64,000 nt of DNA from a virus (Duplodnaviria > Caudoviricetes), in IMG/VR virus record IMGVR_UViG_3300031555_001441, positions 80,270 through 144,269 of that record. One strand, given 5' to 3'. Position numbers and translations under genes: made by a program. This document shows, piece after piece, positions 5,619 to 45,491 of the stretch. The stretch's first letter is position 1; every line of letters begins with the position of its first letter. The notes beneath the pieces were generated by a model that was given only the letters and a program-made list of their open reading frames with translations, did not search any database and was not told the DNA's origin.

Positions 5619-5654
5619 CTTGTAAACTCCTTCTCTTGAAGAATTGATTTATTT

Positions 5655-5722
5655 TACAAGTATATTATAAGCCCTTCTGATTAAATCAGTATTATATATT
5701 TATTAAATTTTTATAAATTTTA
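5655..5722 (-). promoter_or_regulatory. 68-bp class C repeat (AT-rich tract, CTGA-N5-TCAG palindrome, TATAAT), copy 1 of 3
   Basis: Near-identical to 35846-35913 and 45352-45419. Confidence 0.75.
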
Positions 5723-5768
5723 AAGATCAATACATAGAAAAAGCTCCGATGTATTTCGGAGCTTTGTT

Positions 5769-31059: not shown

Positions 31060-31390
31060 AGTGTAAGGACTAGCGAATCACCTTACTGTACCTATCTCCG
31101 CTTTCAAGGCTTTCGATTGCGCTCTATTAGGTAGAATTACACAACACTTTTAATTCAGATTCCTGACTTGACTCAGCATGAGTATCTGAACACCTAATAG
31201 AGAAATCAATTTAATAAAAGTTACCGTCACTTTCGCTCGGATTGATTACCGCGTTTCCTGCCTCATGGCAGTCACTCTTGTTCTGTCTTTGCAGTTGAGT
31301 TACGTCTCCCTATCATGATTCCGTTTGATCTGTCGGAGCAGCACGGAGATCGGTTAGCCTTGCTATTATTTCAAGCCAACAGTAACTTTT
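31060..31390 (-). ncRNA. ~330-nt structured RNA sharing motifs with the 1150-nt RNA
   Basis: Closed domains at 31216-31390 and 31122-31202; shared 16-mer and CGAAAGCC..CGGAGA..GGTAC. Confidence 0.55.
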
Positions 31391-31585: not shown

Positions 31586-31700
31586 TAGGCTGTTCTACAC
31601 ACATTTAACTACTTCTGTCCAGTTCGTCTACTAACCCAAGCGTCCTATCCAGCAACGCTCCCGATATTCGGACGGGCGTTCATCCGCATCGTAGCACCTA
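31586..31700 (-). ncRNA. family B ~115-nt RNA, copy 1
   Basis: AGGTGCTACGA...TAAATG...GAACAGCCT handles. Confidence 0.55.
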
Positions 31701-32738: not shown

Positions 32739-32924
32739 AACCACGGAACTTTTCACGCCTGCTCCTGCATCGTAGGTAGCATCCGTTTCAATTCTATAAA
32801 CCCCAGCGTAGGGTGGCAATATATTTTGACATGCCGTACTCGTGCTACGCACATACCAGTGAATTTACGGTATATATCATTTCAACCGAAGGCTTCACCC
32901 TGCTAACTTAATGGGACTAATCCC

Positions 32925-32998: not shown

Positions 32999-33003
32999 AT
33001 ATT

Positions 33004-33138
33004 GAATCTGAAGAAAGAATATAAGTTATTCCTAATCAACACAACGACTATTAAAACGCACGTGCTCACGATGTATTATATAGGTTTCTCAAAGCCACTC
33101 TGCAGAGTGATATTTTTCGTCTCTCAATCTTCAGATTT
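33004..33138 (-). ncRNA. family A ~135-nt RNA, copy 2
   Basis: Closing stem AATCTGAAGA/TCTTCAGATT; core shared with 30920-31059. Confidence 0.6.
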
Positions 33139-33266
33139 TGGTGCACTCTACAAGATTCGAACTTGTCTAAACTGTCTGTAGCTTCTTCTACATATCAGCT
33201 CTTAGTTTCAGGCATCAAGAAGTATTGCCTTAGACCTTAGTGTTCTTCCAAATGAACTAAGAGTGC
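33139..33266 (-). ncRNA. 128-nt tRNA-like RNA with an enlarged anticodon/variable region
   Basis: Perfect acceptor GCACTCT/AGAGTGC-A-CCA; D arm GTTC/GAAC; T arm ACAAG-TTCGAAT-CTTGT; ~70-nt two-hairpin centre. Confidence 0.7.
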
Positions 33267-33351
33267 AGAATTGAGCCTCAGGGCGTCCCCATGTTGGCTC
33301 AGTGACAGTTGTGGTGTTCAGTCACTTCGAGTCAGTAGACTGTCAACTACT

Positions 33352-33512
33352 TAGCACAACTTTTAAGGATGAAGTTTGTGCCTTATCATAACCGCCCGTG
33401 TCGTAGGTCGCCCGCCACCTTTTTTGAACATGAGGCATGGAAGCTTCCTCAGCTAACAATGAGAGTCTAACTCATGTCTTCACCCCGAAGGGTCGCACTC
33501 CACGTTGTGCTA
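33352..33512 (-). ncRNA. putative structured ncRNA, ~160 nt
   Basis: 9-bp closing stem TAGCACAAC/GTTGTGCTA; CCC-TTCG-GGG tetraloop hairpin. Confidence 0.45.
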
Positions 33513-33528
33513 TGTTAGCATATTAAGT

Positions 33529-33668
33529 TGATGCAGGTAAGGATTTCCACCTTACATGAGCAAGTCTAAGTACACGATTTGACATTTTGTGGAATTACAC
33601 CTCTACGGGTACCGCAATCTTACTATCTCTACTCTTGTTCAAGCGTCTACGTATTCCGCCACTGCATC
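33529..33668 (-). ncRNA. 140-nt tRNA-Leu-like RNA with a long extended anticodon arm
   Basis: Acceptor GATGCAG/CTGCATC-A; Leu-type D arm GCGGAAT..GTAGACGC; atypical T loop TGGAAAT. Confidence 0.6.
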
Positions 33669-33774
33669 TGAGAGCCTAGACCTATATCACTCTCCGGTCC
33701 TCTGCAAGCTCTTTGAGGACTTTATCCGTTTCTGCGCGCATCCGACGAATACACTCGGACATTTCTAAATTGAA

Positions 33775-33895
33775 TTGTAGGCTGTTCATCAAACTCCATT
33801 TAACATGTACTGCTGCTCTATCCGATTTACGCTCAGGAACCTCCTGCATCTCGTCAAATACCGCTTACGATTCGGAAGCTTCGTAGCACCTACAA
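33775..33895 (-). ncRNA. family B ~120-nt RNA, copy 2
   Basis: TTGTAGG/CCTACAA stem with the same handles. Confidence 0.6.
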
Positions 33896-34059
33896 CTCTT
33901 GTTGTTTCTTCCCTGTGTCGTAGAGAACACACGCCTTTCACTGTAGTAGAAAAAGTAATTACTGCACGCTCGATTCTACCGTACTGACATAACGACCAAA
34001 AATGTTATGGAAATTTATTGGATCTCAGTAACTTGGAACGTCATTACCGAGAAGCGGTC

Positions 34060-34344: not shown

Positions 34345-34413
34345 AGGATTGTGTGAGAGTCGAACTCACTCCTGCAGTTTCTGAGGCTGCTGTGCGCCGT
34401 ACACCATCGCTCC
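34345..34413 (-). pseudogene. degenerate tRNA (loop CT-CAG-AA)
   Basis: T arm GTGAG-TTCGACT-CTCAC intact; acceptor stem has 3 mismatches; no CCA. Confidence 0.55.
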
Positions 34414-34484
34414 ATATAGATTGTACTTTCTTACTTACGTAGAAGAAACTTTTAAGAAGACGGATACATACTAAAAGCTTAATA

Positions 34485-35634
34485 TGGAGTTGGCAGTCTT
34501 TCCCACTGACTGCCTGAGACTCTATCTCTCATCACAGTCCTCTGTCACATTACTGTGCTCTTCGGCTTTTACCTCCACTAACGGAGGCGAGAGTCTCCCT
34601 GACATCCTTAGTACTTGCACAATCTGGCTTCACTTAATAGGAACATCGCTACGTTTCAGGTATAAGTACCAACAGCTTCGCCTCCCTCCGCAGGGACTTC
34701 CTCTGGACTCAGACCAGACTTTCCACCATTGAATACATACGATGCTATTCCATGTCGCATCCTATTTAAGTATATCGGAGTTTCACCGACACCTTACGAG
34801 AATCCGAACCCACCAATTCTCTGAGTACTACTGGCTCGCTTTAGTAATGCGATGCCTGACTGTTCCGAAGTTCGTCCGCAACTGTCTGAGTTTAACGGGC
34901 TATTTCTCCTTACTGAATCCTGAGACTCGGATTGATTACCGAGGAGAGATTCAACGGCTCTTTTTGTGCCGAAGTCTCTATTAACCTTCGGCTAAATTCC
35001 TCTCTTCGAAAATCTCTGCGCAGATAAGAGGAATACTTTAGGATGTAGTGGCAACCTCACTTTACTATAATCCACTACGTTACTCGAAGTACCTCTCCGA
35101 ATTTTTCGGCTTTCGCTAATCCAGTCTTACAACCTCGTACCTATTTACGGAGATACGCTGACCGAAGGTTTTAGTTAGAATAAGTGTAGCACCAACCTCA
35201 TTTGTGAAACTTGCTACCTACGGAGATACTTTTGCGCATTTCACGCATCCATCACCGTTCTTAGATCACTATCGTGTCTAAAGGTTGTTGATCTTAACTG
35301 GTACCTGAACCCACGAGTACCTTGGCGTTGTTGCACGCGTGTCCATCATTCAAGATATAACGGGCGACGTCCTTCCCGATCACGTATCATCGCTTTGATC
35401 AGAAGCGACTTCGAGATCAGCACCACTATTCATCTGAGGTAGATTTAATTCATCAACCACTTATCTGACTCTACGACCTTGTACTTCGGTGGTCATGCAC
35501 CTTCAGATCTCACTTTATTTCGAGCCTGTGAGCAGGACTTGGTGTGGAGAGCCTTTCTGTAGATACTTTCATGTGACTTTTTCACCTTTAGAGCGTACTC
35601 GCGAATACGACATCTTCAAGCTTCTCTAACTCCA
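34485..35634 (-). ncRNA. 1150-nt large structured ncRNA, GOLLD/ROOL-like candidate
   Basis: Begins 1 nt after the tRNA-Leu CCA; TGGAGTT/AACTCCA terminal stem; many hairpins; no credible minus-strand ORF. Confidence 0.6.
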
Positions 35635-35635
35635 C

Positions 35636-35719
35636 TGGTGCACCTGGAGAGACTTGAACTCTCACCCATCTTGGACTGGACCCTAAAACCAGCGCGTCTG
35701 CCATTTCCGCCACAGATGC
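35636..35719 (-). tRNA. tRNA-Leu(UAG)
   Basis: Class II cloverleaf; TT-TAG-GG loop; CCA encoded. Confidence 0.9.
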
Positions 35720-35725
35720 ATGTAT

Positions 35726-35836
35726 TATATCAGGCTGTTCATCCCACTCCATTTACCACTGCTGCTGCGTCCATTTACTCCGTTCCAGAAAGCTATTAAG
35801 GCGATCTGCGGTATAGGCTTCGTGGCACCTGATATA
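35726..35836 (-). ncRNA. family B ~110-nt RNA, copy 3
   Basis: TATATCAGG/CCTGATATA stem with the same handles. Confidence 0.6.
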
Positions 35837-35845
35837 TTTGATTTT

Positions 35846-35913
35846 TACAAGTATATTATAAGCCCTACTGATTATGTCAGTATTATATATTTATTAAATT
35901 TTTATAAATTTTA
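35846..35913 (-). promoter_or_regulatory. 68-bp class C repeat, copy 2, at the head of the RNA island
   Basis: Near-identical to 5655-5722. Confidence 0.75.
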
Positions 35914-36159
35914 GAGATAAATACTAATAAAATCTGTATCTTTCTCAATTATTAAAGGTCCAACGCAGATCTGATTGATGTCAATTGATTCTCAAATTCT
36001 TTCTGATACTTATCTCGTAAACAATTAAGTTCAGAAATGTACTGTGATCTTAATTCTTTGAATATGTCCATGGAATGTTTAAGTTCAACTGCTTTTTGAA
36101 TCACTTCCGAATCGCATCCGATGATCTTGTATTCTGCCACTTGAGTCTGTCTCCTACTG

Positions 36160-45322: not shown

Positions 45323-45351
45323 CTCTGTGATCTCCTTGTTTTGATTTATTC

Positions 45352-45419
45352 TACAAGTATATTATAAGTCCATATGATTATATCAGTATTATATATTTAT
45401 TAAATTTTTATAAATTTTA
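45352..45419 (-). promoter_or_regulatory. 68-bp class C repeat, copy 3
   Basis: Near-identical to the other two copies. Confidence 0.75.
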
Positions 45420-45491
45420 GAAATCAAAACATAGAAAAAGCGTCTGATGCAAGAACATCAAACGCTCGAAAGAGAGGTATAATAATGAGAA

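Follow-up and report, generated by a model that had tools for sequence, protein, structure and literature searches.

Between the tRNA genes of an uncultured phage lies a 1150-nt non-coding element that we tentatively read as an accessory, possibly modular, structured RNA of the tRNA operon, analogous rather than homologous to ROOL and GOLLD, an interpretation that we favor as possible while stopping short of calling it probable. The element is located on the minus strand of the window, by which we mean the whole 64-kb stretch of DNA that was analysed, corresponding to the final 64 kb of a 144,269-bp IMG/VR record with an estimated completeness of 96%. Counted in support of this reading are the non-coding character of the stretch, its place in a co-oriented island, its raised GC content, its paralogous hairpins and repeats, a shuffle test of its folding energy, the contents of the equivalent slots in related phages and its recovery from at least 10 samples.

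The phage genome has a GC content of ~39% and carries nearly all genes on the minus strand, as does the tRNA island, which comprises tRNA-Pro, Thr, Asn, Gly, Gln, a weak tRNA-like element and tRNA-Leu(UAG), i.e. seven co-oriented tRNA or tRNA-like genes, and for which no minus-strand terminator is predicted. The island is preceded by genes encoding an SbcC-like ATPase and a UvrD helicase and followed by an NAD-dependent ligase gene. A candidate promoter ~130 nt upstream of tRNA-Leu sits within a ~90-nt AT-rich element (35843-35932) that we noticed by way of a contig from the same strain (L127) and that has further copies at 5652-5741 and 45340-45438. The three window copies are 85-91% identical and the repeat is 84-89% identical in two relatives (L003 and L057), and on these sequence grounds it is likely a class of phage promoter. 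Another motif, GAACAGCCU followed by a TATAAT-like sequence, occurs in exactly three minus-strand copies (31587-31595, 33779-33787 and 35732-35740), all inside the tRNA island. The last copy was considered as the tRNA-Leu promoter and rejected because its end is separated from tRNA-Leu by 4 nt, too short a distance; the motif may form the 3' terminus of a small RNA that is repeated.

All sequence features that a first-pass annotation had reported for the 1150-nt stretch are present (Table 1). Its description as ORF-free was confirmed, as each of the six frames contains 10-30 stops and the longest ORF on the gene strand spans 34 aa. Its GC content is 45.7%, compared to 39.2% for coding sequence and 24-43% for the other gaps, and its G content is above that of both coding and intergenic DNA. 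The stretch indeed starts 1 nt after the tRNA-Leu CCA, with the single base G35635 separating the CCA from UGGAGUU. The 3' hairpin, which had been called strong, abuts the closing helix and is predicted to stack directly on it, yielding a minihelix-like end; its 9-nt loop is not a T-loop. The annotation had also called the element closed. Pairing of the ends (UGGAGUU/AACUCCA) is real, but a closed architecture is not established, because the position of the complement to the first 7 nt was itself used to set the 3' boundary, such a complement turns up somewhere within ~1300 nt with a chance of ~8% (arithmetic estimate) and a random sequence of 1150 nt would be expected to contain about ten perfect 8-bp helices.

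Table 1. Coordinates of the element, its predicted substructures and flanking features in the window
Feature	Position	Strand	Basis
1150-nt non-coding element	34485..35634	-	no Pfam/PHROG/Rfam family
Closing helix, 5' strand UGGAGUU (proposed)	35628..35634	-	sequence; partition function p=0.93 for 6 bp
Closing helix, 3' strand AACUCCA (exact complement)	34485..34491	-	sequence; partition function p=0.93
Terminal 3' hairpin, 7-bp GGCAGUC/GACUGCC, loop AGUGGGAAA	34492..34514	-	p=1.00
GUAUCUCCGUA, copy 1	35219..35229	-	predicted local pairing with ACGG..GAUG (RNA positions 377-415)
GUAUCUCCGUA, copy 2	35146..35156	-	predicted within local hairpin CGUAUCU/AGGUACG
CGGAGAGGUAC, proposed 'acceptor'	35089..35099	-	sequence; 6-bp complementarity to the 11-mers
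Paralogous hairpin 1, stem GUAGCA/UGCUAC, loop end AAAUGAGGUUGG	35186..35217	-	repeat family D1; p=0.73
Paralogous hairpin 2, stem GUAGUGG/CCACUAC, loop end AAGUGAGGUUG	35045..35078	-	repeat family D1; p=0.98
Hairpin CUCGG-UAAUCAAU-CCGAG	34926..34943	-	p=0.72; 16-mer E=0.001
Hairpin UCGCUU-CUGAUCA-AAGCGA, loop with 6-nt palindrome UGAUCA	35390..35408	-	sequence; MFE structure
~70-nt tail between element and downstream tRNA-like RNA	34414..34484	-	no similarity to L057
tRNA-Leu(UAG), CCA encoded	35636..35719	-	ARAGORN; Rfam tRNA model 46.3 bits; 87.5% identical in L057
Weak tRNA-like element	34345..34413	-	Rfam tRNA model 29.6 bits; 89.7% identical in L057
Candidate sigma-70-type promoter (CTGACA, 16 nt, TAATAT), ~130 nt upstream of tRNA-Leu	35853..35880	-	consensus scan; function inferred

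Repeated motifs are a prominent trait of the element, and the 11-mer, GAGGUUG and 16-mer repeats described here are far above chance. The 11-mer GUAUCUCCGUA is duplicated as reported, with exactly two copies in 64 kb against a chance expectation of 0.01. The motif CGGAGAGGUAC, to which both copies had been proposed to pair, is likewise present, but the complementarity is confined to 6 bp (UCUCCG/CGGAGA); the idea of two donors for one acceptor in assembly was not upheld, given this 6-bp match and the competing, stronger local pairings predicted for both 11-mers. The two paralogous hairpins retain the loop motif and differ at two stem pairs, each changed on both sides (C-G to U-A and A-U to G-C), and this duplicated pair with its two compensatory base pairs is the best internal evidence for structure. 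Outside the two hairpins, the 144-kb genome contains no exact copy of their loop motif AARUGAGGUUG, (U/C)GAGGUUG is found in three copies within 150 nt, and duplicated modules are present in the middle of the element. The 16-mer of the UAAUCAAU hairpin recurs unchanged at 31236-31251, within the ~330-nt spacer that follows tRNA-Asn. From sequence alone, the three GAGGUUG motifs and the UGAUCA loop are candidate contact motifs. Contigs from three independent assemblies (JGI 3300028242, JGI 3300019378 and ENA ERZ27248457) all end exactly at 35395 (RNA position 240), where a near-palindromic hairpin has its loop, and this break may reflect an assembly-graph branch from a variant with a different 5' part.

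Folding of the full-length element gave an MFE of -349 kcal/mol (z=-2.85 versus 40 dinucleotide shuffles), the native fold being more stable than 40/40 shuffles. The antisense strand scored z=-3.47, four coding controls of the same length scored z=-2.26, -0.47, +0.29 and -1.60, and 200-nt windows were mostly unremarkable, with z-scores near zero. Partition function calculations returned ~30 helices with p of at least 0.6, nearly all of them local and downstream of position 270, with few confident helices in the first ~270 nt, and hairpins with GNRA and UNCG tetraloops were not enriched in the element. We count against our favored reading that the z-score lies close to the strongest coding control, that the antisense signal is equally strong and the local windows are mostly near zero, that tetraloops are not enriched and that the first ~270 nt are poor in confident helices. 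Judged from these predictions, the intrinsic structure signal is suggestive but weak.

Of the bacterial and phage RNAs without an assigned function, GOLLD and ROOL rank among the largest, and both have recently been found to assemble into RNA-only nanocages. ROOL is a large non-coding RNA that phages and prophages encode, often near tRNA islands (10.1101/2024.12.08.627333; PMC5737381), and GOLLD is a phage- or prophage-encoded RNA of >800 nt whose gene lies within or next to a tRNA array and in some cases immediately follows a tRNA (10.1101/2024.12.08.627333). The 1150-nt element resembles ROOL as a candidate large phage non-coding RNA near tRNAs, and GOLLD in that it is non-coding, viral, longer than 800 nt and located 1 nt after tRNA-Leu. 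By contrast, it is about twice as long as the ROOL mean (581 nt), shows no demonstrable conserved multistem junctions or pseudoknots and has no match to the conserved 3' domain on which the GOLLD model is built. Membership in either class, which had been raised as a possibility, was contradicted by cmsearch: neither the GOLLD model (RF02032, gathering score 150 bits) nor the ROOL model (RF03087, 574 positions, gathering score 99.1 bits) matches at E<=10 anywhere in the 144-kb genome, and the positive controls were recovered with 285.1 bits (ROOL, related genome G012) and 174.5 bits (GOLLD, related genome G002). Rfam 15 at gathering thresholds returned tRNAs only, and a permissive cmscan (E<=10) of 7 kb and of the 1225-nt stretch alone returned nothing credible. 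Group I and group II introns, RNase P RNA, tmRNA and rRNA fragments had no Rfam match at E<=10 in the 1225-nt stretch, nor did ARAGORN report a tmRNA, and no tRNA-like or tRNA-chassis shape was detected inside 34485-35634 with ARAGORN or Rfam RF00005.

The setting of the element is nevertheless of the GOLLD/ROOL type, as the annotation had pointed out with regard to the neighboring tRNA. The stretch is non-coding and sits in a co-oriented tRNA operon, and related phages hold genuine ROOL and GOLLD RNAs in their tRNA arrays. Four relatives of the SbcC-like protein share ~50% identity with it and hundreds share ~40%, and among 52 IMG/VR loci taken with 10-kb flanks many have a tRNA array downstream of the SbcC-like gene. 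On the downstream side of that gene, one of them encodes a genuine ROOL (285 bits, L015:15800-16365, i.e. G012:C1:112861-113426), separated by 21 nt from the preceding tRNA-Ser and by 26 nt from the following tRNA-Gln. A 253-kb relative has a genuine GOLLD (174.5 bits, L140:1501-1937, minus strand, i.e. G002:C1:18935-19371) in the midst of a dense tRNA array, and a tRNA-Arg falls within the GOLLD span; the tRNA arrays of two relatives contain a tmRNA (L024:9818-10257, 78.8 bits; L019:18903-19360, 64.1 bits). Moreover, a ~1-kb ORF-free RNA that we refer to as class X occupies a whole inter-tRNA spacer in L025-L033 and L040 (for example L027:16705-17678; partial in L009:12754-12944) and begins right after tRNA-Leu in several genomes. 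RNAalifold assigned 245 pairs to class X, 25 of them with compensatory changes, including a covarying long-range helix; no Rfam family scored above threshold, the only signal being a 42.8-bit sub-threshold segment resembling RAGATH-36. The 1150-nt element resembles class X in filling an inter-tRNA spacer, in measuring ~1 kb, in being ORF-free and in belonging to the same phage group, and differs from it in that class X has 25 covarying pairs and the element has no RAGATH-36-like match; an nhmmer profile of class X found no match in the window. As a candidate for a new large phage RNA, class X is stronger than the 1150-nt element.

The nearest informative relative (L057), whose SbcC protein is 50% identical and whose tRNAs are 87-92% identical at the nucleotide level, lacks the element, which we also count against our favored reading. 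In this phage tRNA-Leu is followed by a 176-nt spacer, the tRNA-like element, a 67-aa ORF, tRNA-Gln, 31 nt and then the sequence that comes after tRNA-Gly in the window. The 176-nt spacer is unrelated to the 1150-nt element at the same place, and the idea that it is a reduced version of the element was discarded, as local alignments score no better than shuffles. The element and, separately, a 1.06-kb block together with tRNA-Gly are indels between close relatives; the element is therefore accessory and, on this sequence comparison, appears to be dispensable for the lineage. Three other close relatives (L002, L003 and L056) are uninformative on the slot, since their contigs stop at or within tRNA-Leu, and the spacers of L016, L019 and L020 align poorly and offer no usable structure. 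A weak similarity to L014 9270-9761 (z=4.8) rests on a gappy alignment and was not trusted.

Two other stretches of the island were noted in the course of these comparisons. The 1.06-kb block (32999-34059, minus strand) is a second ORF-poor stretch, located between tRNA-Gln and tRNA-Gly and absent from L057, and it has fragments resembling tRNA-Leu and the sequence upstream of tRNA-Leu (33643-33662 and 33779-33805). Just after tRNA-Gly, a non-coding segment (32740-32909, minus strand) is 86% identical to L057:7686-7851, compared with ~50% identity for proteins of the two phages; it has no Rfam match and, judged by this conservation, is probably a small RNA.

Homologues of the 1150-nt element itself were not found in any collection searched. 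Against 50,697 GenBank phages, blastn matched the tRNA alone, and neither nhmmer and blastn against 54 related loci nor BLAST against 41 whole related IMG/VR records matched the element. Motif scans yielded only chance matches in coding DNA or tRNAs in IMG/VR, and no match in one scan and 29 chance matches in another of GTDB genomes; a scan of JGI metagenomes with the duplicated 11-mer, which is poorly suited as a query, gave 57 matches, all in unrelated tandem repeats. As a protein proxy, we compared translations of three frames, read through stops with X, with ~15 billion predicted proteins, seeking spurious ORFs on homologous DNA. This yielded only contigs of the same strain, eight with retrievable DNA (L067 and L127-L133, from JGI and ENA) and others without DNA. 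These copies are 99.95-100% identical to the window and come from at least 10 samples; the strain is widespread in these samples but clonal. Only clonal copies were recovered, and no homologues with compensatory base changes were found, the sole internal case being the two pairs between the paralogous hairpins. The first-pass annotation had named the lack of covarying homologues as an outcome that would speak against an ornate RNA, and this is currently the situation; we likewise count the lack of a homologue, and hence of covariation evidence, against our favored reading.

How might such an RNA be made? Phage T4 offers a comparison in the stable RNAs of its tRNA cluster (species 1 and 2, rnaC/rnaD), non-tRNA species that are co-transcribed with tRNAs and released by tRNA-processing enzymes. 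These are ~100-200 nt long and tRNA-shaped, and the element differs from them in that it has no internal match to a tRNA model and its 3' loop is not a T-loop. On the basis of the shared orientation, the promoter-like repeat ~130 nt upstream and the absence of a predicted terminator in the island, we infer that the element would almost certainly share a minus-strand transcript with tRNA-Leu and the tRNAs that follow, and that its RNA would be bounded and released by the enzymes that mature the flanking tRNAs. The 3' end of tRNA-Leu(UAG) would fix the 5' end of the element, which 3' trimming of the tRNA would generate, and RNase P cleavage at a candidate site, the 5' end of the tRNA-like element (34345-34413), would set the 3' limit, giving a product of ~1.15-1.22 kb that may include the ~70-nt tail. 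The predicted fold of the released RNA consists for the most part of ~20 local hairpin domains arranged in a chain, with duplicated modules among them, and the predicted stacking of the 3' hairpin on the short terminal helix could shield the RNA from exonucleases. Its role would be that of a trans-acting RNA during infection: since the inter-tRNA slots of related phages hold ROOL, GOLLD, tmRNA and class X, the same broad purpose is expected for the element.

The rival that survives best, which we regard as rather unlikely, is that the element is non-functional filler, i.e. DNA that recombination in a rapidly changing tRNA array brought in or enlarged and that is transcribed only as a precursor spacer and then degraded. 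Its absence from the nearest relative, whose spacers are compact, its status as an orphan in every collection searched and the weak and strand-symmetric thermodynamic signal all fit this explanation. On the other hand, the phage is gene-dense, with minus-strand ORFs of at least 90 aa alone accounting for 82% of the window, and the GC and G content of the element exceeds that of both coding and intergenic DNA. Filler would also not account for duplicated hairpins that retain pairing through compensatory changes, and no remnant of a decayed gene, tRNA or rRNA is detectable in the element. Its identity across at least 10 samples points the same way as weak evidence, because the samples hold the same strain.

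We judge it unlikely that the element represents a new class of giant ornate RNA, folded into one integrated and closed unit by long-range helices and perhaps forming multimers through its repeated or palindromic loops. The terminal helix and the abutting hairpin have high pairing probabilities, the full-length fold outperforms every shuffle, the GAGGUUG motifs and the UGAUCA loop could mediate RNA-RNA contacts, and integrated folds of ~0.6-1 kb (ROOL, GOLLD and class X with its covarying long-range helix) occupy the slots of relatives. However, the closing 7-mer has a chance of ~8% and 8-bp long-range helices are also expected by chance, the z-score is barely beyond that of the coding controls and there is no sense-strand advantage. 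Without homologues there is no covariation to speak for a single fold, the 5' quarter is poorly structured, and the coincident break of three assemblies at RNA position 240 hints that the 5' part may be separable. The more specific claim that the element founds a single-lineage class of >1-kb ornate phage RNA, with the slot and role of ROOL and GOLLD, a closed fold and self-association or partner capture via repeated loops, is one that we find quite improbable; the loops in question would be the three Shine-Dalgarno-like GAGGUUG elements and the palindromic UGAUCA loop.

That the stretch acts at the DNA level is very unlikely, be it as an origin of replication, as a site of packaging or recombination or as a non-autonomous mobile element bounded by terminal inverted repeats of 7 bp: its ends are inverted repeats and it is an indel relative to L057, but it is present in one copy only in the genome, lacks both iterons and tandem repeats, is rich in GC instead of AT and shows no visible target-site duplication, and a 7-bp repeat is within chance. 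A protein-coding identity, be it a gene in an alternative genetic code or a recently broken one, is effectively refuted, for even though one of the plus-strand frames contains just 10 stops and is called as a 166-aa ORF with TGA=W by some gene finders, TAA, TAG and TGA occur in all six frames so that no stop reassignment opens a frame, table 11 reads the neighboring genes normally, Pfam and PHROG families have no match on any frame read through with X, and the only related ORFs among ~15 billion predicted proteins are spurious ORFs of the same strain.

ROOL, GOLLD, tmRNA, class X and the orphan 1.15-kb element lie in equivalent inter-tRNA slots of one phage group, a pattern which suggests that large RNAs are exchanged as cargo in these slots and that there are more classes of such RNAs than the two named ones. 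Should the element turn out not to be stable as an RNA, it would caution against presuming an ornate RNA wherever a kilobase without ORFs lies next to phage tRNAs. If it did found a new class, the tRNA arrays of this phage group would be a reservoir of interchangeable giant RNAs. As a stable RNA, the element would add a third, longer type, and the present phage and the L057-type relative would form a natural presence/absence pair for asking about function.
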